Notes under the pieces: generated by a model
What the model was told of the DNA's origin: nothing
What the model saw: only the letters and a program-made list of their open reading frames with translations
The model's database searches: none
NCBI RefSeq assembly: GCF_056712565.1
Contig: NZ_CM160072.1
Direction: 5' to 3' (one strand)
Length of the DNA: 64,000 nucleotides
Part shown: one piece after another, positions 2,341 to 64,000 of the stretch
Numbering within the stretch: position 1 is the stretch's first letter
Layout: every line of letters begins with the position of its first letter
Made by a program: the position numbers and the translations under genes

Positions 2341-4563
2341 TTGGCTGTTCAATTCGCTTATCCGTGGAACGTCCCACGGTCGGCAATCTCCAGCCCATAC
2401 CTTACTTATGAGCAACAGCATCGCCGCGACCGTATGTTCGCGGCTTTGCTGCATGCAAAAAAGGTGCTTTCTCTCCAGCCCGACTGCGTGCGGTTAGATG
2501 TTTATCGCACTGCTGCGGTGCTGGAGCAAAATCAGGGTAGTCAACGAGCCAATGCATTTTTAATCAGCTTCTGCAAAAAGGCATTGCCGCGTCTTGAACT
2601 GGTCGCAAAAAAATACGAATGCGCTGGTATCAACAGCAAGGTATCAACCGCTGTTTTTGGAAGTCATTTTGATACTCAGCAAATGCAATATCTGTCGTCA
2701 CGCATGGTTAATATGGTCGCCCGATATAACCGTCTCCCGGACATGTCGCGCGCTGATGTTGACCTGTTGGCCGCTGATATTGCTAATTTCATTCGTGGTG
2801 AACTTGCCAACATTAATGACCACGGATTCGGCGAGCTTAAAACGCTGTACACCTGGTATATTCGTGCTGGCTTTATTTCCCTCCAATTCAACGTTATCCC
2901 ACCACATTGGGAGCGGGTTGAAAAAAAATATGTCGGTGCGGATGAAATCGCACCGGCTATCGCCAAAATGTTTAACGATGGGTGGTGGCGCGGTCGTTTG
3001 CGCCGTGTAGCAGCTACGTGGCGCGAACACCTGCAAATTGCAGTCGGCAACGTCAGTAAGAAAAAAAACACTTACGCGAGTAAAAACTGCGTGACTGACT
3101 GGCGTGAACAAAAGCGCCGCACTCGTGAATTTCTCAAAGGTCTGGATCTCGAAGACGAAGACGGCAACCGTATCAGCCTAATTGAAAAATATGATGGCTC
3201 AGTTGCTAACCCTGCGATTCGCCGCTGTGAGCTCATGACCCGCATTCGTGGGTTTGAAAACATCTGTAATGAGCTCGGTTATGTCGGTGAGTTTTACACT
3301 CTAACCGCGCCGTCAAAATATCACGCCACGACTAAAGCCGGTTACCGTAACAGCAAATGGAGCGGTGCCAGCCCGGCTGACACGCAAAACTATCTAACCG
3401 GTATCTGGGCGCGTATCCGTGCCAAACTACATCGGGAAGATGTCCGTATTTTCGGTATTCGTGTCGCCGAGCCCCATCACGACGGCACTCCACACTGGCA
3501 CATGCTGATGTTCATGCTGCCGGAAGATGTTGAATATGTTCGCTCCATCGTCCGTAAATACGCATGGAAAGAAGACCGCCACGAACTGAAAAGCGATAAA
3601 TCCAAAAAAGCACGTTTCCACGCGGAGTCCATTGACCCGGAGAAAGGCAGCGCAACCGGCTATGTTGCTAAATACATTTCAAAAAATATCGACGGTTATG
3701 CTCTCGATGGTGAAACCGATGATGAAAGCGGTGAGCTGCTGAAAGAGACAGCCCCCGCCGTTTCAGCATGGGCTGCGCGCTGGCACATCCGTCAGTTTCA
3801 GTTTATTGGTGGTGCGCCGGTGACGGTTTACCGTGAGTTGCGTCGCCTCGCTGATACCGAAACCGCGCACGGTCTGAGCGTTGAGTTTGCCGCCGTCCAT
3901 GATGCCGCCGACGCTGGTGACTGGGCTGGTTATGTTAATGCTCAGGGTGGGCCGTTTGTCCGTCGCGATGATTTACAGGTGCGCACACTGTATGAACCGC
4001 GTACCGAGCTTAATCAGTACGGTGAGGAAACGGTATGTATTAAGGGGGTCTACGATTCCTCCATAGGTGCAGGAAGCCCGATTTTAACCCGGCTCACTCA
4101 GTGGAAGATTGTTCCGAAGCGTGCTGTTGATTTGCCCGTTGACCTTCAGGACGGCAAAGCCGTCCCTCGGAGTTCTGTCAATAACTGTACGGGAAGCGAA
4201 AGCGATCCACCGATACTGGATTTAACAAAACCACTGAGTCGGCGTGAAAGACGAGAATTGACCAACCGACTCAGGAAGCAAAAGCCAGCAGCACGGCGAA
4301 AATTCATCCACGGAACGGATGAGCAAAACGCAGCTATAGCTAAAACTATCGATGAGATACATCTGACAACCGGCATTAATATCAGCCGGGGCGAAGCCCT
4401 GCACCTGATGGCCGGTGGTAAAAGTTGTTTTGATGGTAAATGGCTACGCGGAACGGCCAAAGGAGAAATATTTTCCGCAGCACCATCGCATGAGGCTAAA
4501 GCTCGGAAAATCCTTAATCGTGTTGCGGCGATGGCTGAAGCATTAAAACCAATACATGAGTAA
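2341..4563 (+). CDS. A: replication initiation endonuclease (P2 gpA family, rolling-circle initiator)
   Basis: 740-aa ORF (TTG start in track; true start may be downstream ATG); motifs PHWHMLMF and YVAKYISKN (active-site Tyr region) as in gpA. Confidence 0.8.
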   Translation: MAVQFAYPWNVPRSAISSPYLTYEQQHRRDRMFAALLHAKKVLSLQPDCVRLDVYRTAAVLEQNQGSQRANAFLISFCKKALPRLELVAKKYECAGINSKVSTAVFGSHFDTQQMQYLSSRMVNMVARYNRLPDMSRADVDLLAADIANFIRGELANINDHGFGELKTLYTWYIRAGFISLQFNVIPPHWERVEKKYVGADEIAPAIAKMFNDGWWRGRLRRVAATWREHLQIAVGNVSKKKNTYASKNCVTDWREQKRRTREFLKGLDLEDEDGNRISLIEKYDGSVANPAIRRCELMTRIRGFENICNELGYVGEFYTLTAPSKYHATTKAGYRNSKWSGASPADTQNYLTGIWARIRAKLHREDVRIFGIRVAEPHHDGTPHWHMLMFMLPEDVEYVRSIVRKYAWKEDRHELKSDKSKKARFHAESIDPEKGSATGYVAKYISKNIDGYALDGETDDESGELLKETAPAVSAWAARWHIRQFQFIGGAPVTVYRELRRLADTETAHGLSVEFAAVHDAADAGDWAGYVNAQGGPFVRRDDLQVRTLYEPRTELNQYGEETVCIKGVYDSSIGAGSPILTRLTQWKIVPKRAVDLPVDLQDGKAVPRSSVNNCTGSESDPPILDLTKPLSRRERRELTNRLRKQKPAARRKFIHGTDEQNAAIAKTIDEIHLTTGINISRGEALHLMAGGKSCFDGKWLRGTAKGEIFSAAPSHEAKARKILNRVAAMAEALKPIHE

Positions 4564-4637: not shown

Positions 4638-4657
4638 TACTGTATAAATATACAGTA
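4638..4657. promoter_or_regulatory. LexA (SOS) box overlapping sigma70 promoter for tum/dinI-like operon
   Basis: TACTGTATAAATATACAGTA = CTGT-N8-ACAG palindrome; -35 TTGCCA (4625-4630) and -10 TATAAAT inside the box; RBS GGGAGGGAT then ATG 4677. Confidence 0.6.
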
Positions 4658-4676: not shown

Positions 4677-4859
4677 ATGGTTGGCGAACATTTCAGCCGA
4701 ACGCAGCAAAAGTGGGCTTGTGTGCAATTTATTGCCGAGGTATCTCTGATTGCAAACTGCAAGCCATCAGACTTAAAGCTCGCGCTCACTCTCATTGCAG
4801 ACCTAGCAAACAGCGAAAATAACGAAACCGAAGATGATAATTTTTATAAGGCTGATTAG
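4677..4859 (+). CDS. Tum-like N-terminal segment (putative antirepressor part), ends at in-frame TAG
   Basis: 60-aa ORF directly downstream of LexA box; TAG 4857-4859 then ATT then ATG 4863 in the same frame. Confidence 0.4.
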   Translation: MVGEHFSRTQQKWACVQFIAEVSLIANCKPSDLKLALTLIADLANSENNETEDDNFYKAD

Positions 4860-4862
4860 ATT

Positions 4863-5093
4863 ATGAGAATCAATATCACGTTGGATAAAGAGCAAAAATT
4901 AGGGCAACAGATCATTGATGCTTTTCAGAATGAAATAACACATCGAGTACAATGCGTTTTTCCTGCAACAAAAGTTAACGTTAAGAAAGGGTCAATGACT
5001 GGTGTAGAGGCTATCGGATTCGATAAAGAGGCGGACAGAGAAACATTAGGCAGCATATTACAAGAGATTTGGGAAGACGATAGCTGGCGTTAA
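4863..5093 (+). CDS. DinI-family protein (Tum C-terminal domain-like)
   Basis: 76 aa MRINITLDKEQKLGQQIIDAFQNEITHRVQCVFP...LGSILQEIWEDDSWR matches DinI pattern (MRIEVTIAK...ISEILQETWESADDW) from memory. Confidence 0.6.
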   Translation: MRINITLDKEQKLGQQIIDAFQNEITHRVQCVFPATKVNVKKGSMTGVEAIGFDKEADRETLGSILQEIWEDDSWR

Positions 5094-5292: not shown

Positions 5293-5502
5293 ATGCATCG
5301 ACTACCAGGTGAAATACCGCAGCACAAAACTAAAAGCATCAAACTGATGGCCATCGTTCATCGTTTGCAGCAGATAATGGTCAATGAGAATTTGACACCC
5401 GCAGAGCTGGTCGGGTGTGCCGAAATAGTCAGGGATAATTACGGCAAGCTGGATAGCATCAGCAGGTCGAAACAATACGCACCACCACCACGTCGACGAT
5501 AG
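5293..5502 (+). CDS. hypothetical small protein (69 aa)
   Basis: ORF with RBS GAGGGTGATAAT before ATG; flanked by the two direct repeats. Confidence 0.4.
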   Translation: MHRLPGEIPQHKTKSIKLMAIVHRLQQIMVNENLTPAELVGCAEIVRDNYGKLDSISRSKQYAPPPRRR

Positions 5503-5530
5503 CAAACGCCGCCGGTTCTGAAACTCGCTT

Positions 5531-5573
5531 TCAGTACTGGCGGGGGTTGAACAACGAGCACCGCGAGGCGTTA
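5531..5573. repeat. copy 2 of ~32-bp imperfect direct repeat
   Basis: See copy 1; both copies preceded by a short hairpin (CGCAAAAA..TTTTTGCG at 5117-5137; CTGAAA..TTTCAG at 5519-5534). Confidence 0.5.
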
Positions 5574-5576
5574 GCA

Positions 5577-6518
5577 TTAATTTATTTTTAATGAATGGTA
5601 ATCTCGTGAGTTGACCGAAGATTTGAGATAACTGCAATCATTAACCGACAGTATTGCCGCTAATAGGCGACATACCAGTGCCTGCATTTGCAGCAATATA
5701 TCGTTACCATATTGACTGTTGTTAACACTTGAGAAACCAAGCGGTTGACCAAAAAAAATAGCCTCATGAAAATTATCATTGCGGATGCCAGAAATGTTTT
5801 TTTTACCTGACACCCATGTGGGGATTGATAACCCATAAATTTTGCACATCCACTTTAATCGCTTGTAATGATTTGGCGGTTTTTTATCAGGAGCCTTGTC
5901 ATGCTCAGCCCACGACAAAGCAAAGCACCCATCAAGTGCCATGTAAAGATACTGGAATTTTTCAAAAGAAAGGTATTGTGGGTTTTGAGATAAGAATAGT
6001 GCATGCACCACTGCCGCAATTCTTTTGGGGGAGTGCGCATCCTTATGTTTGCCATTTATATAATTAAGAGCCAGTTCTATGACTTCTTTTTCAGAGCATC
6101 CAACGAGAATAAAGTCGGTTAACTTAGTGGGCTTGATAGTGGTTGCATCTAAAAAACCAGCGTCAGTGGTTGTCAATCTTATTCCCTTGAAAAAAGAAAG
6201 GCACCACACAATAAAGTTGAGAGTTTCTAACGAGGATGTATTTTTTAATTTTAGTGTGTGCGTTTTGGGCATACTGAATACTCGGTGACTATAAGGCATT
6301 GTGGATATGCCACCATTAAGGTTATATACATCTTGGTTTCCAGGGTATATCCAACCTTTCACAACGTTTTTATCATTATTAACACGCTCCACTTTCTCAT
6401 TGAGACCAGGTAAAGTAAGCAAAGAAAATTGTTCAGTCTCAATGTTAACTTCTACTGGATAGTATCCAAACTCCGACATAATCTCATTGGGTTGCTGTTC
6501 GTCAACTTCACCTTGCAT
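5577..6518 (-). CDS. hypothetical cargo protein, 313 aa, with RNxxxH motif (possible HEPN-like)
   Basis: AT-rich ORF unlike flanking phage DNA; motif GIRNDNFHEAIFF (R-x4-H) near C-terminus; no other recognisable domain. Confidence 0.6.
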   Translation of the reverse strand: MQGEVDEQQPNEIMSEFGYYPVEVNIETEQFSLLTLPGLNEKVERVNNDKNVVKGWIYPGNQDVYNLNGGISTMPYSHRVFSMPKTHTLKLKNTSSLETLNFIVWCLSFFKGIRLTTTDAGFLDATTIKPTKLTDFILVGCSEKEVIELALNYINGKHKDAHSPKRIAAVVHALFLSQNPQYLSFEKFQYLYMALDGCFALSWAEHDKAPDKKPPNHYKRLKWMCKIYGLSIPTWVSGKKNISGIRNDNFHEAIFFGQPLGFSSVNNSQYGNDILLQMQALVCRLLAAILSVNDCSYLKSSVNSRDYHSLKIN

Positions 6519-6541
6519 ATCTTTCTCCGTTCAAAAATAGG

Positions 6542-6557
6542 CTCGATAATTATCGAG
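6542..6557. promoter_or_regulatory. perfect 16-bp palindrome upstream of the 313-aa gene (candidate operator)
   Basis: CTCGATAATTATCGAG, 24-39 bp upstream of start codon at 6518 on reverse strand. Confidence 0.35.
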
Positions 6558-6755
6558 AGGCTATCATGTTTGGAAAGAACCAATGTCCGTAATTTTTGTA
6601 AATTTAAGGTGATTTATCAATAAATAAGCTGTGCATGCAACAGGTGCATGGTTCTGCATGCGCCGGGGTTACCCGTTTTGTACGTGCGCCGCAAGAGCTG
6701 GCGGGGATCCAGAGTGGTCATGCAACTGCATTAAAACCGCCCCATAAAGCGGGCA

Positions 6756-6774
6756 GGCGTGGCGGGGAAAGCAT
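6756..6774. other. cos: cos cohesive-end sequence, 186 type
   Basis: GGCGTGGCGGGGAAAGCAT equals the 19-nt 186 cohesive end as recalled (P2 GGCGAGGCGGGGAAAGCAC); in GC-rich non-coding stretch between A-side cargo and portal gene. Confidence 0.6.
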
Positions 6775-6993
6775 TGCGCGTCAGCAGTGATGCGTAATAA
6801 TAAAAATTATCCTCTGAGCGCGTCGTGATGGCGCTGTCGTGGTCGCTGCTGGTTCGTTGGTGGTCGGGTGTGTTCGTGCGCGTGAGACGCATCTGATGCG
6901 TGATGGTGGTGTGCATGGAAAAGCCACCAGGAGCAGCGGCTTTACAGGAGTGGCAGGATTCAAACTGCTAATTATGTTTCTACTATGATTAAA

Positions 6994-7998
6994 CTAATTT
7001 ACATGTATGTAGAGTTCACCGTCGCCAGACCAATCGGGACACTCTAAAACAAGCCCAAACTGCTTGAATATTTCATCAATGATTATTGTTATCTCCCGAA
7101 AATCACCAAAACCTGTAATGTGCTGGTCATTAAACTTCCCATAAAGATTCTGAAAAGCAATGCCTAATTCTGATAATTGATATCTTATCTTTGAGTTGGA
7201 TAGTGTAAGGGATAGCTTTGGATCGTATTCTTTAATATTGATGTTTAGAGAATGGACATAACCCATCGCATAAGCATAAGAGTTGATGATTAGCCTGATA
7301 CGTTTTTTTACTTCGAGATACATGTCATTCAGAGAAATATTACCGTACTTATAACCCCAGATGAGTTTTTCAATCTCGTCAGATACTTCATTTACAACAG
7401 TGTCAAGATTCTCTAAAAATAAATCGATAGTTTCTTGAGGGGCAGACCCCGAAGACATGTAATTAGCGAGATATTCAGACCATGCACGCGTGGCTGAGAT
7501 AAGAAGCGCGCTACCATACTCGTTGACTGTAAAGTTTTGGGCTAAGCATGTTAGTAAGTTTTTTTCATGTACGTGCACTAATTCATGGTGAATGCGATGG
7601 ATGACTGCGAGGTATCCTTCTTCTTTCAGTTTTAAGAAGCTACCATCATTGAAAAGCTCAACAAAAAAATCAATCGATAGCACAAGGGTATATTCTTCAC
7701 ATAGCCCATCATTGCCAATTTTTGTTACTAACTGCCCGACGGCTGCGCCCTGTTTACTATTGGTAAATGAACTAGGGGATTTGTGTTGGTAAGAGGATGT
7801 TACCTTTTGAAGAGCTTCACTGAAGTTATAGGAAACAATCACGCATTTTAATTTGGAGATATCAAGATTGAGATTTTTTGTTAAAGCTCGGATAGCTTCT
7901 AGTGTGAAATTACCGATATTATTTGCTTCTTGCTCAGTAGCGAAACCTTCGAGGGTTATTTTAAAATCAGTTTCCAAAATATTAATCTCCGCGCCCAT
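6994..7998 (-). CDS. hypothetical cargo protein, 334 aa, HExxH...E zinc-metallopeptidase-like motif
   Basis: AT-rich ORF between cos and portal gene; HELVH with Glu 22 residues after first His (gluzincin-like spacing). Confidence 0.6.
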   Translation of the reverse strand: MGAEINILETDFKITLEGFATEQEANNIGNFTLEAIRALTKNLNLDISKLKCVIVSYNFSEALQKVTSSYQHKSPSSFTNSKQGAAVGQLVTKIGNDGLCEEYTLVLSIDFFVELFNDGSFLKLKEEGYLAVIHRIHHELVHVHEKNLLTCLAQNFTVNEYGSALLISATRAWSEYLANYMSSGSAPQETIDLFLENLDTVVNEVSDEIEKLIWGYKYGNISLNDMYLEVKKRIRLIINSYAYAMGYVHSLNINIKEYDPKLSLTLSNSKIRYQLSELGIAFQNLYGKFNDQHITGFGDFREITIIIDEIFKQFGLVLECPDWSGDGELYIHVN

Positions 7999-14414: not shown

Positions 14415-14617
14415 TGAAAGTCTACGCGATGCAGGGCGACACCATCGACGCGCTTTGCGCCCGGTATTACGGGCGCACTGAGGGCGTGGTCGAGGCGGTG
14501 CTGCAGGCTAATCCCGGTCTGTCTGAGCTGGGCGTCATTCTGCCGCATGGCACGGCAATTGACCTGCCCGACATGGCATCGTCACCCGTAACAGAAACTA
14601 TCAACCTTTGGGAGTAA
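14414..14617 (+). CDS. X: tail protein X (P2 gpX family)
   Basis: 67 aa, overlapping stop/start with L. Confidence 0.7.
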   Translation: MKVYAMQGDTIDALCARYYGRTEGVVEAVLQANPGLSELGVILPHGTAIDLPDMASSPVTETINLWE

Positions 14618-17524: not shown

Positions 17525-18089
17525 GTTTATTGTCTCCTGGTTTTTTAGGGAGCAATTTTTCAGCCCAAGATGCGAGTCGGCTTAGAACTAAGTCTGAAAA
17601 ATATCCTAATATAAAACAAATCGAGAATGCAATTTTGGTCTTACCATGCCCTTTAATGGAGGATACAAACGTATCCGGAGATAATATCGTATAAGAACAA
17701 AAAGCCACTAAAGCAGCTAAGAACGGAATAAAAATCCTCCAGTAGAACTTATGGGATTCCCAAGGGAAATTATACTGATTGTTTTTCCCTCTAGCAGTTA
17801 CTCTATAAAACCATTTTGCATTATACACCCACCCTCCAAAAAAACCACCAAGAATAGAAAACAAAGATATTTTATTATTATATGACAGCTCAAAAACAAA
17901 TTGAAAAAGAAAGGCGAGAATGCAACCTATTACAAAAAGAACTATTAAATAAGCAAATTCGAATTTTATTTGTTCACAATCGTTATTAAAATAAGGCACA
18001 ACCTCATCATCGCCTAAGGTTTTTTTTCTTTCAGTCATTTGCCAAACACCTTCATTTTTTACTGTGAGCCAGGGTAATTGCATATTCAA
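17517..18089 (-). CDS. small integral membrane protein (about 4 TM helices); cargo gene, overlaps HIT gene by 8 nt
   Basis: Hydrophobic stretches YLIVLFVIGCILAFLFQFVF, ISLFSILGGFFGGWVY, IFIPFLAALVAFCSYTIL, IAFSICFILGYFSDLVL; AT-rich. Confidence 0.65.
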   Translation of the reverse strand: MNMQLPWLTVKNEGVWQMTERKKTLGDDEVVPYFNNDCEQIKFEFAYLIVLFVIGCILAFLFQFVFELSYNNKISLFSILGGFFGGWVYNAKWFYRVTARGKNNQYNFPWESHKFYWRIFIPFLAALVAFCSYTILSPDTFVSSIKGHGKTKIAFSICFILGYFSDLVLSRLASWAEKLLPKKPGDNKRE

Positions 18090-40561: not shown

Positions 40562-40924
40562 GGGGCTGATTCTGGATTCGACGGGATTTGCGAAACCCAA
40601 GGTGCATGCCGAGGGGCGGTTGGCCTCGTAAAAAGCCGCAAAAAATAGTCGCAAACGACGAAAACTACGCTTTAGCAGCTTAATAACCTGCTTAGAGCCC
40701 TCTCTCCCTAGCCTCCGCTCTTAGGACGGGGATCAAGAGAGGTCAAACCCAAAAGAGATCGCGTGGAAGCCCTGCCTGGGGTTGAAGCGTTAAAACTTAA
40801 TCAGGCTAGTTTGTTAGTGGCGTGTCCGTCCGCAGCTGGCAAGCGAATGTAAAGACTGACTAAGCATGTAGTACCGAGGATGTAGGAATTTCGGACGCGG
40901 GTTCAACTCCCGCCAGCTCCACCA
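40562..40924 (+). ncRNA. ssrA: tmRNA (transfer-messenger RNA)
   Basis: Starts GGGGCTGATTCTGGATTCGACGGG, contains tag ORF region (GCAAACGACGAAAACTACGCTTTAGCAGCTTAA), ends GGGTTCAACTCCCGCCAGCTCCACCA; 363 nt. Confidence 0.9.
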
Positions 40925-41361: not shown

Positions 41362-41452
41362 TAGACTGGCCCCCTGAATCTCCAGACAACCAATATCACT
41401 TATTTAAGTGATAGTCTTAATACTAGTTTTTAGACTAGTCATTGGAGAGCAG

Positions 41453-41818
41453 ATGATTGATGTCTTAGGACCGGAGAAACGCAGACGGCGTACCACACAG
41501 GAAAAGATCGCAATTGTTCAGCAGAGCTTTGAACCAGGGATGACGGTCTCCCTCGTTGCCCGGCAACATGGTGTAGCAGCCAGCCAGTTATTTCTCTGGC
41601 GTAAGCAATACCAGGAAGGAAGTCTTACTGCTGTCGCCGCCGGAGAACAGGTTGTTCCTGCCTCTGAACTTGCTGCCGCCATGAAGCAGATTAAAGAACT
41701 CCAGCGCCTGCTCGGCAAGAAAACGATGGAAAATGAACTCCTCAAAGAAGCCGTTGAATATGGACGGGCAAAAAAGTGGATAGCGCACGCGCCCTTATTG
41801 CCCGGGGATGGGGAGTAA
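41453..41818 (+). CDS. insC: IS2 OrfA (InsC, HTH transposase part)
   Basis: [56 protein letters not shown]... Confidence 0.85.
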
Positions 41819-42681
41819 GCTTAGTCAGCCGTTGTCTCCGGGTGTCGCGTGCGCAGTTGCACGTCATTCTCAGACGAACCGATGACTGGATGGATGGCCG
41901 CCGCAGTCGTCACACTGATGATACGGATGTGCTTCTCCGTATACACCATGTTATCGGAGAGCTGCCCACGTATGGTTATCGTCGGGTATGGGCGCTGCTT
42001 CGCAGACAGGCAGAACTTGATGGTATGCCTGCGATCAATGCCAAACGTGTTTACCGGATCATGCGCCAGAATGCGCTGTTGCTTGAGCGAAAACCTGCTG
42101 TACCGCCATCGAAACGGGCACATACAGGCAGAGTGGCTGTGAAAGAAAGTAATCAGCGATGGTGCTCTGACGGGTTCGAGTTCCGCTGTGATAACGGAGA
42201 AAAACTGCGAGTCACGTTCGCGCTGGACTGCTGTGACCGTGAGGCACTGCACTGGGCGGTCACTACGGGCGGCTTCAACAGTGAAACAGTACAGGACGTC
42301 ATGCTGGGAGCGGTGGAACGCCGCTTCGGCAACGAGCTTCCGGCGTCTCCAGTAGAGTGGCTGACGGATAATGGTTCATGCTACCGGGCTAATGAAACAC
42401 GGCAGTTTGCCCGGATGTTGGGGCTTGAACCGAAGAGCACGGCGGTGCGGAGTCCGGAGAGTAACGGCATAGCAGAGAGCTTCGTGAAAACGATAAAGCG
42501 TGACTACATCAGTGTCATGCCCAAACCAGACGGGTTAACGGCAGCAAAGAACCTTGCAGAGGCGTTCGAGCATTATAACGAATGGCATCCGCATAGTGCA
42601 CTGGGTTATCGCTCGCCACGGGAATATCTACGGCAGCAAGCCAGTAATGGGTTAAGTGATAACAGGTGTCTGGAAATATAG
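41776..42681 (+). CDS. insD: IS2 OrfB (InsD, DDE transposase catalytic part)
   Basis: 301 aa overlapping orfA in -1 frame, typical IS3-family arrangement. Confidence 0.85.
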
Positions 42682-42692
42682 GGGCAAATCCA

Positions 42693-45241: not shown

Positions 45242-45441
45242 TGATTGTTTTTTATGCGGAGAAATACCGGGGAATAATTGGGGTAAAACACCTTTAGGCT
45301 ATTCACTTAGCCTACCACCATCAAAATCTTTCCGAATGTATCCATCTCTTTTTTCTTATGCAGCTAAAACGAAGTCTTGATACTGTTTATTTACACAGAT
45401 AAGAATAATACTGTCTACAAACGCAGTACAAAAGAAGTGTT

Positions 45442-45620
45442 ATGCGTATTGAGATCTCCATAGCCAAAGACAAAATGACCAAATGCCAAACGGCGCTGTG
45501 GACGCGTTAAAGGAAGAATTAACCCAACACATTGGCAAGCGTTATGACGATGTGGAGATGATCGTAAAAGCCACCAGCAACGATAGTTTTTCAGTTAGAC
45601 ATACTGCAGATAAAGATTGA
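45442..45620 (+). pseudogene. DinI-like small gene with apparent frameshift (two overlapping short frames)
   Basis: [14 protein letters not shown] (frame 1, stop 45508-45510) continues in another frame as [37 protein letters not shown]; resembles DinI N-terminus from memory. Confidence 0.35.
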
Positions 45621-46044
45621 GCTAAAACTTTCGTTCAGGAAACTCTGAATGATACCTGAGAGTCTACTGAAGAGTTGTTTGTTCACTAGTTAGCACGTAG
45701 GAAATCATTCAATACTCGCACTATCGGAAGTTCACCAGCCAGTCGTAGCACGTCCTTGCAAACGACGTGCCTACGGTTTCAATCACCTCTCACCATCAAT
45801 TCTATCAATAATAATTAAACAGCGCCTAGACAAAATAAATAACAACAAGTCAACAACCTCGACAGGATGCCGATGGGATGATGAAGAGATAAGAAAGAAT
45901 AACCAGTAAAGCCCTAAAACGTCAGCGTTCAGACGCGTTTTTTACTTAATCGGTAACAAATACGTTGTATCATAGCAAAATAAAATGATTGTTCTAAATC
46001 AGATTAACTCCTCACTTTTGTACAATGTCGCTTACAGGTATACC

Positions 46045-48029: not shown

Positions 48030-48158
48030 CTAGGTCTCGGACTTTGTACCGCTTATCTTGTCTTCAAAAATCAGCTCGCATCCTGCACAGTTCAGCGCAT
48101 TACGTTGTAGATCTGTGTTCTGGTCATTTGTTGACACACGTACATAGCCAATAAGCAT
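48030..48158 (-). pseudogene. pin: truncated serine DNA invertase gene (Pin/Gin family), N-terminal 42 codons only
   Basis: MLIGYVRVSTNDQNTDLQRNALNCAGCELIFEDKISGTKSET then TAG; matches recalled Pin/Gin N-terminus incl. catalytic Ser region; RBS GGGAGA upstream. Confidence 0.7.
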
Positions 48159-48184: not shown

Positions 48185-48679
48185 ATGATGCCATTTGCTC
48201 GTTATTTCTGCATTTTCATAAACGTTGGTTTGGGAGAAGGCTCTGCATTACCTGTTGGTGTGCCTGTTCCATGGCCTTCAGCCACACCGCCAACAGGCTG
48301 GCTGAAATGCAACGGTGCGGCTTTTTCTGCTGAAGAATACCCGGAACTGGCAAAGGCTTATCCGACAAATAAATTGCCTGATTTACGTGGTGAGTTTATT
48401 CGTGGCTGGGATGATGGGCGCGGCGTTGATTCAAGGCGTGCGGTGCTGTCAACACAAGAGCCAACTGTAGGTACTTTTTATGTGGAGCTAGCTATCATCT
48501 CGGGAACTTTGAGCGGCTCAGGTGCTAAATTTACCGATTCAGTAGGGATTGGATCAACCAGTAGTAACATTACCGTTAGCAACGGTAATGACCAGTCCGT
48601 GTCGGGTACAGTGGCCGTTAACCCCGTCGATACCCGTCCACGCAACATTGCATTTAACTATATCGTGAGAGCAGCATAA
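48185..48679 (+). CDS. silent alternative tail-fibre C-terminal (variable) segment inside invertible region
   Basis: PSATPPTGWLKCNGAAF...TRPRNIAFNYIVRAA shared with P2-family H C-terminus (21280-21730); no own N-terminal domain. Confidence 0.6.
   Translation: MMPFARYFCIFINVGLGEGSALPVGVPVPWPSATPPTGWLKCNGAAFSAEEYPELAKAYPTNKLPDLRGEFIRGWDDGRGVDSRRAVLSTQEPTVGTFYVELAIISGTLSGSGAKFTDSVGIGSTSSNITVSNGNDQSVSGTVAVNPVDTRPRNIAFNYIVRAA
48213..48238. repeat. gix-like inversion crossover site (left boundary of invertible tail-fibre segment)
   Basis: TTTTCATAAACG-TT-GGTTTGGGAGAA; 15-bp core TTGGTTTGGGAGAAG is exact inverted repeat of 50139-50153; half-site resembles Gin/Pin site TTATCCAAAACC. Confidence 0.55.
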
Positions 48680-49281
48680 TGGATAAAGCAATATTAAATA
48701 GTGGACTTGTTGCTACAAAGGCAGGGGATATTACCGTTTATAACTATGATGGTGAAACTCGGGAATATATTTCCACTTCAAGTGAATATCTTGCCGTTGG
48801 TGTTGGTATCCCGGCATATTCCTGTCTGGATGCACCAGGTATACATAAGGCGGGTTATGCTATCTGTCGTTCTGTGAATTTAAATTCATGGGAATATGTG
48901 CCAGACCATCGCGGTGAAATCGTCTATAACACCGAAACGGGAGAATCAAAACAAATCACAGCACCGGGTGATTACCCCGAAAATACAACCACTATTGCCC
49001 CATTAACGCCATACGATAAATGGGATGGTGAGAAATGGGTGACCGATACTGAGGCACAGCATAGCGCCGCAGTAGACGCGGCAGAAGCACAGCGTCAGTC
49101 ACTGATTGATGCTGCAATGGCTTCCATCGGTCTGATTCAGCTGAAATTACAGGCCGGACGGAAGCTGATGCAGGCAGAAACAACCCGGCTTAACGCTGTG
49201 CTGGATTACATTGACGCGGTGACGGCAACAAATACCAGCACAGCGCCGGATGTCATCTGGCCTGAACTGCCGGAGGCGTAG
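48679..49281 (+). CDS. tail fibre assembly protein (alternative copy, inside invertible segment)
   Basis: N-terminus ATKAGDITVYNYDGETRE near-identical to gpG-like protein at 21732. Confidence 0.65.
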   Translation: MDKAILNSGLVATKAGDITVYNYDGETREYISTSSEYLAVGVGIPAYSCLDAPGIHKAGYAICRSVNLNSWEYVPDHRGEIVYNTETGESKQITAPGDYPENTTTIAPLTPYDKWDGEKWVTDTEAQHSAAVDAAEAQRQSLIDAAMASIGLIQLKLQAGRKLMQAETTRLNAVLDYIDAVTATNTSTAPDVIWPELPEA

Positions 49282-49696
49282 GCCATTCAATATCTGGCGC
49301 ACAGGAAGTATCGACCAGTTCCAGTGCGTCCAGATAATCCAGCCACGAATTATATTGCGCCAGTTCCTCGCCTTTCAGACGACCAATAGCAGCTTTGCCA
49401 GGCCACTGATGGGTATTGATGTAGGTATTGACTTCTGAAACCAAAGATATTTTTTTCATTTCAGCCGTCAACACCTCATCCTCTTTTGAAGGGGGTGGGG
49501 AATTAATCCATACTGGCCGTCCTGAACTGTCAGCGCCAATTTCTTTCCCTTCTGGATGCAGACCAAGAAATTGCTCATATGTTTCTCTGGTAATTTCAAT
49601 AACATCATCAGGAAGCGTTCCCGCATCCTCATATTCTGGAAACAATTCTTGCAGATAAAAACTTTTACTTCCGGGTGAAAAGAATACTGAGTTCAT
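49253..49696 (-). CDS. tail fibre assembly protein (expressed orientation)
   Basis: 147 aa with C-terminal ...LDALELVDTSCAPDIEWPTPP typical Tfa ending. Confidence 0.65.
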   Translation of the reverse strand: MNSVFFSPGSKSFYLQELFPEYEDAGTLPDDVIEITRETYEQFLGLHPEGKEIGADSSGRPVWINSPPPSKEDEVLTAEMKKISLVSEVNTYINTHQWPGKAAIGRLKGEELAQYNSWLDYLDALELVDTSCAPDIEWPTPPAVQAR

Positions 49697-49698
49697 TA

Positions 49699-50442
49699 TT
49701 ACCGTCCAATGATTAACGCTGAGACGCTGGTATCTGAAGGAAAGGCTGCATTCAGTGGTTTGTCGACTTTGAACACAATCGTATTATTCCCCCTGACAGC
49801 GGCAAAAGAACAAACCGCCGTCGCGTATGAACCTGTAATATTACTGGATACACCACCATAAGCTGTTGTTGATACCAGAGGGATAACGCCCAGCACCTTA
49901 TTAGGAAATACAAAGGGCAATGTGGCTGTGGCAATATAAGACTTATTAGAACCTGTGATGGCATAAGCATTATCAGTCATTCCATTCATCGCCACTGGGC
50001 CGCTTATACTTACAGTAACCATCTGAATGATTAGCCCGTCAGGTTGACGAATCACAAAATTTCCATTGCCACCAGTAACCGTCCAGAAAGACATATCAGG
50101 GATTTGGTTTTCCCCGTTGCCCACATTCCGTTTTGCCGCTTCTCCCAAACCAAGGTTTTCGAGAGCCGTTTTCACCGTGCCGTCCGATTTGATATCGCTA
50201 AACGGATTCTTGCGGCTTAACAGCAGCGCACGAAGCGCGGTAAGCAGCTGGTCGTGCCGCGCCTTCTCCAGACTGGCACCGGATGCCTCCACCACGCTGC
50301 AGAGTTCTTCCTGCAACATGTCAAAGTAGTCATCATCCAGATCGGTGGCAGGCGTGCCTGTCTGGGGGTTACCACGGGTAAAACCGTTCTTACCCGCGCC
50401 GAACTTATCCTTCTGCGCGGTTTTCGTGTCTATACGATGCAT
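49699..50442 (-). CDS. tail fibre protein (constant N-terminal part + current variable C-terminal part)
   Basis: 247 aa; gix-like site lies inside the gene at codons around [10 protein letters not shown]. Confidence 0.65.
50140..50165. repeat. gix-like inversion crossover site (right boundary, inside tail-fibre gene)
   Basis: TTCTCCCAAACC-AA-GGTTTTCGAGAG. Confidence 0.55.
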
Positions 50443-50445
50443 GGA

Positions 50446-51030
50446 TTACTCCGGATATTTAAAAATTACGTAGGTATGCGAAGGGCAGAGTTTGTTAAGC
50501 ACACATTCGACGACGGTGTCGCCCCAGATACGCAGCGCGGAATCACAGGGATCGCCACATGTCATCCAGGTGCTGTTGGTGGCGGCTGGCATGTTGACCT
50601 GCCAGTAATACCGCCATTCCGGCGCATTCACCGCGTCAGTACAGGCCGATGAGCAGGTGAACGTGCTTTTGTCGTATCGCGTGATGGTGGCGTCTGGTCT
50701 GCCCAGGGCAGCAAGCTGTGCAAGGTAAAAATCCTCATTGATGCCGCCCGCCAGGTTAACCTTCGCATCCAGTCGTTGCTGACGCTGGCGAAGGGTCTGT
50801 GTTCCTGCGGGAATACATTCATCCGGCAGGCCGCACAGACGCTCCCAGCGATTTATCAGTTCGGTGGTGGTGCGCGGATCCAGCTCCCGCATCAGGGCAT
50901 CCGCACGCTGATGAACGCGGGTTAATGACTGTGCCGCACCGGCAATCGCCGGATCGCTGGCTGACCACGCCGGACCGGGCGGCAGCAGTGCCGACAACAG
51001 ACGGATGTAATCATCGTTTGTCACGCCCAT
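50446..51030 (-). CDS. Mu gp48-like tail protein (DUF2313-like)
   Basis: 194 aa between baseplate J and tail fibre genes. Confidence 0.55.
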
Positions 51031-61784: not shown

Positions 61785-62990
61785 TTACGCCGCTGCAATC
61801 TTCAGCAGTTTGATGGCCTGCGAATCGACCAGCATCCCGCCGGTGCGCTTGGTGGTATAAAAACCGACAAACGGTTTATTGGTGTACGGGTCACGCAGAA
61901 TGCGGGTGCCGATACGGTCAACGATGGTGTAACCCCGTTTGAAGTTACCAAATGCAATGGCTTTCGCATCAGCGGCGATATCCGGCATCTGTTCGTTTTC
62001 AGCGATACCGTAACCCGCCAGAGAGGACGGCTGCCCCAGTTCCAGCCCCGGACGCCACAGATAGTTACCCTCGCTGTCTTTAAGCAGACGGATGGCAAAC
62101 AGGCTGTTGTTGTTCATCATGAACTTCGCGCCAGTGCGGTGTGCCTTACGCAGCGTGTAAATCAGTTTGATAATGGCGTCTGCGGTCACCGCCGTCGCTT
62201 CGCCGGATACAATATGCTGAAGTTTGCCGAACGCCCGGACCTTATCGGTTTCATCAGTGGATTCATACGCCAGGAACCCTTTCGGCTTCTTGGTACCATC
62301 GCCGGTGGTAAAGGCAATTTCTTCCTGTTCGGCAAATTCGGTTGCCAGCTCGCTGTTGATCCATGCTTCCACGTTGAAAAAGGCATCATCCAGCATTTTC
62401 TGGGTGGCCTGCGGGTTACCGTAGATTTCCCCCATGAAAGGTTCAATCAGGCCCAGTTTTGAGGTGGCAGTCTGGGAGCGCGCGTCAGTCTCGCCAACCC
62501 ATCCGGAAGCCGTGCCGCCCAGATTCACCAGTTTTTTGTAGTCGGAACCACCAACGGTGATCACCGTGGCTTCCTGGCGCATCACCACTTCATCTTTCAG
62601 CAGGGTGAGAATGTTGCGATCCAGTGCTTCCGGCACGGCATAGCCGCCGTCTTCATCGGTGCCCACCTGCAATGCCTTGCGCTCCAGATCGCGCAGACCA
62701 TCTTCACGGCCTTTACGCAGGAAGCCCACAAACGCTTCTTTATGCTCGGTGGCCAGTTTATTTTGCGCACCACCTGCCGGACGTTTCAGCTCAAGCAGCT
62801 CTTTTTCAAGATCGCTTTTGAGGTTTTCCAGCTCGCTGAGTTTCCCGTTCAGGGTTTCCACCTGCCCGGCAAGTTTGCCTTTTTCCTGCTCAATCGCATC
62901 CACGCGCTTGTCGTTCTTTGCTTTGAAGTCGTCAAACTTCTGCTGCAGCTCCTGCGCGACCTGTTCGACATCTTTAATATCAACCGCCAT
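61785..62990 (-). CDS. major capsid protein (HK97 fold family)
   Basis: 401 aa, N-terminal coiled-coil delta-domain-like region; follows prohead protease. Confidence 0.8.
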   Translation of the reverse strand: MAVDIKDVEQVAQELQQKFDDFKAKNDKRVDAIEQEKGKLAGQVETLNGKLSELENLKSDLEKELLELKRPAGGAQNKLATEHKEAFVGFLRKGREDGLRDLERKALQVGTDEDGGYAVPEALDRNILTLLKDEVVMRQEATVITVGGSDYKKLVNLGGTASGWVGETDARSQTATSKLGLIEPFMGEIYGNPQATQKMLDDAFFNVEAWINSELATEFAEQEEIAFTTGDGTKKPKGFLAYESTDETDKVRAFGKLQHIVSGEATAVTADAIIKLIYTLRKAHRTGAKFMMNNNSLFAIRLLKDSEGNYLWRPGLELGQPSSLAGYGIAENEQMPDIAADAKAIAFGNFKRGYTIVDRIGTRILRDPYTNKPFVGFYTTKRTGGMLVDSQAIKLLKIAAA

Positions 62991-63004
62991 CGTATTTCTC
63001 CTGA

Positions 63005-63691
63005 TTAGAAGTTCAGATTTTTCAGTGCATTCAGTGCAGAGCCCACATCCTCAGCGTCGCGCAGGGACAGTGCGCCATAGCCCCCGGCCATGAATGCTTT
63101 GGCCTGGGTACGGGAGAGTCCGACATCACGCAGGACTCTTTCGATTTTTTTCTGTTCGGGGATTTCCCCGCGGGCCAGTGCGTTCTTGACGTCGCTGATC
63201 CGCGCCTCGTCGTTAGACGGGAACGTCACCAGGCTGACTTCCCAGAGGTCGATTTCTTTCAGCAGAAAGGCTTCTTTGCTCCGGTCGTATTCCCAGTCTT
63301 TCAGGACGTACCCAATAGAAAGGCCGGTTAACGAACCGGCCTTCATGTGTGCATGTGCGCGTTTTGCGAGGGGATCATCATCAATAAGCAACCGTCCCCT
63401 GACGTAAAGCCCGACATCGTCTTCCTTCATTTCGGTGTAAACACCGATGGGTTCATCCATGCGGTGCTGCCAGAGCAGCGCAGGTAACGCTTTTCTGTCA
63501 CTCCACGCCCGCAGGGAAGCAGCAAATGCCCCGGACATCACCACATCATCGTGGCTGTCCTTTACACCAAAGACGGAGCCATACCCTTCAAACTCACCGG
63601 AGTCACTGACAGATTTCAGACTCAGCGGTACATCAAGACGTTGTTTCGTCTGCATTGGCGTTATCCTTCTGCTTACCGGCTTTACTGCCAT
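63005..63691 (-). CDS. prohead maturation protease (HK97 family)
   Basis: 228 aa with GYGSVFGVKDSHDDVVMSGAF region typical of HK97-type prohead proteases. Confidence 0.75.
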   Translation of the reverse strand: MAVKPVSRRITPMQTKQRLDVPLSLKSVSDSGEFEGYGSVFGVKDSHDDVVMSGAFAASLRAWSDRKALPALLWQHRMDEPIGVYTEMKEDDVGLYVRGRLLIDDDPLAKRAHAHMKAGSLTGLSIGYVLKDWEYDRSKEAFLLKEIDLWEVSLVTFPSNDEARISDVKNALARGEIPEQKKIERVLRDVGLSRTQAKAFMAGGYGALSLRDAEDVGSALNALKNLNF

Positions 63692-64000
63692 CGGAGGGTT
63701 TCGTGGTCATGTTCATCGGTGTGAGATAGACATCCCCACCGGGACGGGGATTCATATCTTCCAGGTCGCGGCAGTCATTGGGAGAGTAAATTCCCCAGTT
63801 AATCCCGGTGGCGTAGGCTTCAAAACGGGACTTCATATCCCCGCGCAGTAACGCCCCGGCGTTAAATTTGGCGTAATAAACGCCCTGCTTACTTTTTCGA
63901 ACCAGTCCGGTGTTGATCCGCTGCTCGATGCGGGTCAGATACGGCACCAGTGAATAGTTGATAAATCCCAGCCCCAGCTCTTCAATATTGTTGAAGGTGG
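63633..64000 (-). CDS. portal protein, C-terminal part (gene continues beyond window end)
   Basis: Reverse-strand frame open to window edge; overlaps protease start as in HK97-type head modules. Confidence 0.6.
   Translation of the reverse strand, partial: TFNNIEELGLGFINYSLVPYLTRIEQRINTGLVRKSKQGVYYAKFNAGALLRGDMKSRFEAYATGINWGIYSPNDCRDLEDMNPRPGGDVYLTPMNMTTKPSDGSKAGKQKDNANADETTS

Follow-up and report, generated by a model that had tools for sequence, protein, structure and literature searches.

Two in-frame amber codons in two prophages are very probably unrelated: the native stop of tumA and a strain-specific nonsense mutation in a tape measure gene

Coliphage 186's Tum protein is a 146-amino acid, LexA-controlled antirepressor (Shearwin et al. 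1998, as cited in PMC3121763), and its DinI-like part is also made separately, as Tum95.5, from an internal GTG at the place equivalent to the start of tumB (186 sequence record). In the Salmonella phage PSP3 and in Fels-2 the corresponding gene is split by a stop codon. What Lemire et al. (PMC3121763) have to say of these genes, in the passages that concern tum, is that the antirepressor activity of PSP3 belongs to the upstream gene (a personal communication is cited) and that tumA and tumB are viewed as two separate functional genes. The PSP3 record (AY135486) describes them in the same spirit: tumA is "similar to 5' end 186 tum; UV induction of prophage", and tumB is "similar to dinI and 3' end of 186 tum". 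The stop-split tum and the tumA/tumB arrangement are, in short, already published for PSP3 and Fels-2. The second system that matters here is the Mu-type tail of the Shigella/E. coli phages SfV, SfII and SfI, with its Mu gp42-like tape measure protein (PF10145).

Both systems have close counterparts in the window, by which is meant the whole stretch of 64,000 nucleotides that was analysed. A PSP3/186-type P2-like prophage occupies its left end and adjoins rplS; chromosomal genes from rplS to smpB, and then ssrA, fill the middle; an SfV/SfII-like prophage with a Mu-type tail lies at the right end. The whole is nearly identical to a segment of E. coli SF-468, a human blood isolate from San Francisco (NZ_CP012625.1, about 1257216-1319878, in reverse orientation). 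A preliminary description of this DNA drew attention to one in-frame TAG in each prophage, at 4857-4859 and, on the minus strand, at 57009-57011; both codons are there, in each case in the frame of the next ORF. It took each TAG to split a gene, and offered coincidental decay or an amber-suppressing host as the explanation. The two codons are very probably unrelated, ordinary events: one is the native stop of tumA, the other a strain-specific nonsense mutation in the tape measure gene of a decaying prophage. A known, conserved gene arrangement and an ordinary nonsense mutation share the window by coincidence. The coincidence thus stands, and so does decay in the tape measure gene; at the tum site there is neither a split gene nor decay, the TAG there being the conserved stop of a two-cistron tumA/tumB SOS operon.

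The first site comprises the following features.

2341-4563, directly upstream of tumA: gpA-like ORF (rolling-circle replication gene A)
4638..4657, plus strand: LexA box TACTGTATAAATATACAGTA, read in the sequence, 20 nt upstream of the tumA start codon
4677..4859, plus strand: tumA, 60 amino acids, homologue of an SOS-induced antirepressor; TAG at 4857-4859, to judge from its relatives, is the native stop
4863..5093, plus strand: tumB, 76 amino acids, DinI family; a single codon (ATT) separates the tumA stop from the ATG of tumB itself, and the two genes share a frame

The junction reads ...GCT GAT TAG ATT ATG AGA... and is not peculiar to this strain. The identical sequence, GATTAGATTATG, occurs in PSP3, vB_EcoM-613R3 and Midge; the tumA/tumB junction is shared by PSP3, by five further phages and by 63 complete E. 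coli genomes, where the 12 annotations shown have two CDS and no pseudogene. Resemblance to PSP3 extends to the position of tumA downstream of gene A (an order also found in 613R3, in Midge and at 10 of 11 metagenomic or genomic loci), to the LexA box, to the DinI-family gene following in the same frame, and to TumA itself, which is 98% identical to its PSP3 counterpart. The LexA box contains a perfect CTGT-N8-ACAG core (CTGTATAAATATACAG, 4640-4655) and can be aligned with the LexA site annotated in the p95 promoter of phage 186; a CTGT-N8-ACAG box stands upstream of tumA in all 14 sampled loci. TumB matches the Pfam DinI family (PF06183) with E = 1.7e-17, and PGAP calls it a separate "DinI-like family protein"; its ribosome-binding site, AAGG, is weak (from the sequence and the Midge annotation).

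The relationship to 186 is more distant. A conceptual TumA-TumB fusion aligns with both halves of 186 Tum at 50% identity (E = 2e-46), tumB with the C-terminal half, and the LexA-controlled promoter region is common to the two. The difference is that 186 has one continuous ORF with 36 extra nucleotides before the DinI-like part, while the window has two cistrons parted by TAG ATT; a single fused Tum ORF of the 186 type is not found here, TAG 4857-4859 separating its halves. That tumA and tumB lie in one frame is most simply seen as a relic of ancestry common with 186, and not as evidence of a mutation.

Can TumA stand alone? A search of a 5.8-billion-protein collection yielded 208 homologous clusters. 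Nearly all of the 120 that were listed are 60-61 amino acids long, with identity down to about 71%, and they span more than 10 genera across the Enterobacteriaceae, including Klebsiella, Citrobacter, Cronobacter, Yokenella, Kluyvera, Enterobacter, Pluralibacter, Atlantibacter, Kosakonia, Buttiauxella and Salmonella. A fused TumA-DinI form of about 138 amino acids is absent from these 120 listed clusters; the few longer entries among them (74-93 amino acids) are below the length of such a fusion. Six of the proteins were looked up in their genomic surroundings, giving 11 loci and a set of eight distinct relatives. In all eight the ORF ends at the same residue (...FYKAE/D) and a LexA box lies upstream, but the stop codon itself varies: TAG in three (Kosakonia and E. 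coli among them), TGA in three (Pluralibacter, Enterobacter, Buttiauxella) and TAA in one (Salmonella), with a second TAG-ending locus variant besides. Downstream of tumA, dinI is absent for all six proteins looked up (six of the eight distinct relatives), the stop being followed by unrelated non-coding DNA or by other genes: tail X/holin, HEPN/GmrSD-type genes, a DNA methylase, other cargo. Different stops at the same residue, together with the missing dinI, argue that TumA is a free-standing gene and its stop ancestral. Comparison with orthologues, which the preliminary description had proposed as a check on both sites, thus goes against an interruption at this one: the same junction is found in PSP3 and its kin, and the more distant relatives stop at the same residue. 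TAG 4857-4859 accordingly reads, on comparative grounds, as the native stop of tumA; no gene appears to be interrupted. The proper annotation is two genes, tumA and tumB, and not a broken tum.

What the operon may do follows from homology and the literature. As the first cistron of a LexA-repressed SOS operon in a PSP3/186-type (Eganvirus, P2-like) prophage, tumA would be transcribed together with tumB once DNA damage leads to cleavage of LexA. By homology, and by the PSP3 result reported in PMC3121763, TumA is the likely antirepressor that would inactivate the CI repressor of the P2-like prophage; TumB, translated separately as a DinI homologue, would modulate RecA filaments. The same two modules are carried in fused form by 186.

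Within this operon the likeness to PSP3 is uneven. The tumA DNA is 94-98% identical to that of PSP3-group phages. From about 40 nt into tumB the window departs from PSP3 and Midge; its tumB allele is unlike that of PSP3 and, at the DNA level, seems nearer to the C-terminal half of 186 tum. The pattern suggests a mosaic operon, with a boundary left by recombination just past the tumA/tumB junction. The slot 3' of tumA/tumB is also variable. Here (region 5293-7998) it holds a 69-amino acid ORF and two larger uncharacterised ones:

5577-6518, minus strand: uncharacterised ORF, 313 amino acids, in the cargo slot
6994-7998, minus strand: uncharacterised ORF, 334 amino acids, in the cargo slot

In relatives the slot is occupied by HEPN_RiboL-PSP and GmrSD_N genes, a DNA methylase or an HD-CE protein, which suggests a hotspot for anti-phage defence genes.

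The second site is of another kind.

55503..57338, minus strand: tail tape measure gene, 1836 nt, 612 codons including the stop; a pseudogene by virtue of one amber codon
57009..57011, minus strand: the amber codon, in place of CAG (Gln110); it is base 57011 that has changed (plus strand A, coding strand T)

On the minus strand the site reads ...AAC ATG ATG TAG ATG CTG GTG..., a 109-amino acid ORF (57009-57338) being followed directly, in the same frame, by one of 501 amino acids (55503-57008). The region is about 98% identical to SfV orf14, SfII_16 and SfI_0016 over a 2,101-nt query. These three and the 689R6 gene are uninterrupted and 1836 nt long, and the SKA5 gene is intact at 1833 nt; the window's copy lacks that uninterrupted frame. 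The neighbours agree too: sheath, tube, tail assembly chaperone, DNA circulation protein and baseplate genes, with the tape measure gene between the chaperone and the DNA circulation/baseplate genes. A match to PF10145 (PhageMin_Tail) has E = 8.6e-23, and the downstream fragment matches from position 25 of the 201-position profile, which places the amber stop inside the domain. The one difference that counts is at codon 110, TAG in the window and CAG in SfV, SfII and SfI. Here the orthologue comparison bears out the preliminary description: all five phage orthologues (SfV, SfII, SfI, 689R6 and SKA5) have CAG, and the TAG splits a gene.

The TAG allele has so far been met with only here. A 41-mer centred on the variant, so that any megablast seed must cover the variant base, was compared with 5,426 complete E. 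coli genomes: the TAG version has no match in them, and the CAG version, which serves as positive control, is found at 970 places in 897 of the 5,426. The TAG allele is likewise absent from IMG/VR (exact 38-mer). By these comparisons TAG at codon 110 is a nonsense mutation that appears private to this strain.

(A technical note: exact-protein look-ups with the 109- and 501-amino acid fragments return contigs that break 0-2 nt from codon 110, all with the wild-type C. A mutation hot spot at this codon was considered and rejected, since an arbitrary truncation at 100 amino acids gives 10 such contigs, as compared with 9 for the codon-110 fragments; the breaks are contig ends that fall there by chance and that the query selects.)

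A single C-to-T transition would have turned CAG for Gln110 into amber, so that the tape measure protein would end at residue 109; ribosomes restarting at the ATG beside the stop could yield a 501-amino acid fragment. It is unlikely that a tape measure protein so divided sets tail length, and the prophage, with the amber codon in this gene and a frameshift in baseplate J, is predicted to make no normal tails. It had, indeed, already suffered, as the other lesions in and next to it attest (ssrA is given for position):

40562-40924: ssrA (tmRNA gene), found by ARAGORN
41362..42692, plus strand: IS2, 1331 bp, with a 5-bp target duplication (ACAAC); absent from SF-468
45442..45659, plus strand: dinI-like pseudogene, with a frameshift and internal TGA stops (three-frame translation)
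48036..48158, minus strand: remnant of a Pin/Gin-type invertase gene, of which about the first 41 codons are left
51021..52078, minus strand: baseplate J/gp47 gene, with a 1-nt deletion near 51269 (GGTGGCG to GGTGCG)

Frameshift, TGA stops, truncation and insertion element are thus all found in or next to the prophage that carries the tape measure gene, and clear decay lesions of this sort, taken with the absence of a suppressor tRNA, are what the preliminary description had named as counting against its own proposal. In alignment with SfII_21, the frame of baseplate J is lost after about residue 270 of 352; PGAP marks the SF-468 gene "frameshifted", and the same allele is present, at 100% over 141 nt, in at least 10 complete genomes (SF-468, ZJ3920, MS15052 and several APEC O1/O2:K1:H7 strains are carriers). 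Since SF-468 and others have the frameshift, it is older than the amber mutation, and the allele could mark the lineage of this defective prophage. The dinI-like gene, with a LexA-box-like sequence upstream at about 45383-45398, is noted as "frameshifted; internal stop" in SF-468, where the invertase gene is "incomplete; missing C-terminus". The translation of the invertase remnant begins MLIGYVRVSTNDQNTDLQRNAL..., which we take to be the N-terminus of Pin/Gin/Cin invertases, and similarity then ends. IS2 has ssrA on one side and the first cargo gene of the prophage on the other; NCBIfam identifies "IS2 repressor TnpA" and "IS2 transposase TnpB", both over their cut-offs. With baseplate J frameshifted and other lesions already in place, the tape measure amber is best regarded as neutral decay. 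The gene should be flagged as a pseudogene of a defective SfV-like prophage.

A minor point concerns dinI: the window has one intact prophage copy (tumB) and one dead one, the latter in the cargo region of the SfV-like prophage.

Might the two TAGs nonetheless be translated? One could imagine that the tumA stop is leaky or programmed, and that some TumA-X-Ile-TumB of about 138 amino acids is made beside TumA and TumB and acts like the 146-amino acid Tum of 186. The two genes are in frame and parted by TAG ATT alone, the hypothetical fusion aligns with both halves of 186 Tum, as already described, and the junction is nearly invariant among relatives that carry tumB. That invariance, however, reflects the near-identity of the entire tumA segment and not independent conservation. 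All three stop codons serve at the end of TumA; in six of the eight distinct relatives no dinI follows, and read-through would yield unrelated sequence; none of the listed clusters contains a fused homologue; tumB has its own ATG and a ribosome-binding site, if a weak one; and the passages of PMC3121763 on tum take the genes to be functionally separate. Programmed read-through is recognised by the same leaky stop and an in-frame extension recurring across diverged homologues, and that is not the pattern among these relatives. Read-through at tumA is therefore considered very unlikely, and it is highly improbable that PSP3-type phages at large make TumA, TumB and a minor fusion from one SOS operon, in suppressor-free hosts included. 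A suppressor tRNA of the host (supE/supF-like, with anticodon CUA) reading both codons, and so providing fused Tum as well as full-length tape measure protein, would explain the two sites at one stroke. Both TAGs are followed by A (TAG ATT, TAG ATG), and an A in that position favours amber suppression. Yet the 64-kb window has no tRNA gene, ARAGORN finding tmRNA only; site 1 calls for no suppressor, for relatives end tumA with TGA or TAA, often with no gene downstream; the baseplate J frameshift, the TGA stops of the dinI-like gene and the truncated invertase are beyond rescue by one; and the nearly identical SF-468 has CAG, so that the tape measure mutation must be very recent. This explanation is very improbable. 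The amber-suppressing host of the preliminary description accordingly finds no support, what with a window that offers tmRNA only and a second prophage that has several lesions of non-amber kinds.

With site 1 reclassified, one genuine amber lesion is left, and there is no excess of such lesions to explain. The arrangement that attracted notice is itself commonplace: a six-frame scan of the window gives 64 cases in which one in-frame stop is flanked on either side by 60 or more open codons, and TAG terminates about 7 of 71 long non-overlapping ORFs. A more prosaic alternative for the second site is an error of sequencing or assembly, the true genome having CAG and an intact gene. The TAG is a singleton base difference, seen in no other genome searched, and the window also differs from SF-468 by an indel in a T7/T8 homopolymer at 18027, which is a typical class of error. 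The change at 57011, on the other hand, substitutes one base amid non-repetitive sequence (ATGATG[C/T]AGATG) and is no homopolymer indel, and C-to-T transitions are the commonest of spontaneous mutations. IS2 with its target duplication and an inversion relative to SF-468 are clearly real, marking an independent strain in which a few private SNPs are to be expected. We therefore think an error at 57011 unlikely, and retain a real, strain-specific nonsense mutation as the preferred reading. Its importance, like that of the tumA stop, is small beyond correct annotation, with one practical corollary: adjacent genes often show a stop with an in-frame ORF immediately behind it, and orthologues need to be compared before a nonsense mutation is called.

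Structural differences aside, the roughly 62.7 kb common to SF-468 and the window show three substitutions and a single homopolymer indel (window positions 14573, 18027, 18810 and 57011); the indel, T8/T7 at 18027, is intergenic, and 57011 is the sole difference within 50139-64000. All three substitutions alter prophage structural proteins: besides the tape measure codon, tail protein X has Met54 in the window and Val in SF-468, and baseplate V has His199 in place of Pro. The numbers are too small to show selection.

The inversion just mentioned involves a 1.9-kb tail-fibre segment (48220-50158), which lies in opposite orientations in the window and SF-468. It is flanked by inverted cix/gix-like sites (TTCTCCCAAACCAA..TTT) with mismatches only at the crossover dinucleotides, 48224 and 50154. 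Since the adjacent invertase gene is cut down to about 41 codons, the inversion was probably catalysed by an invertase encoded elsewhere in the genome.
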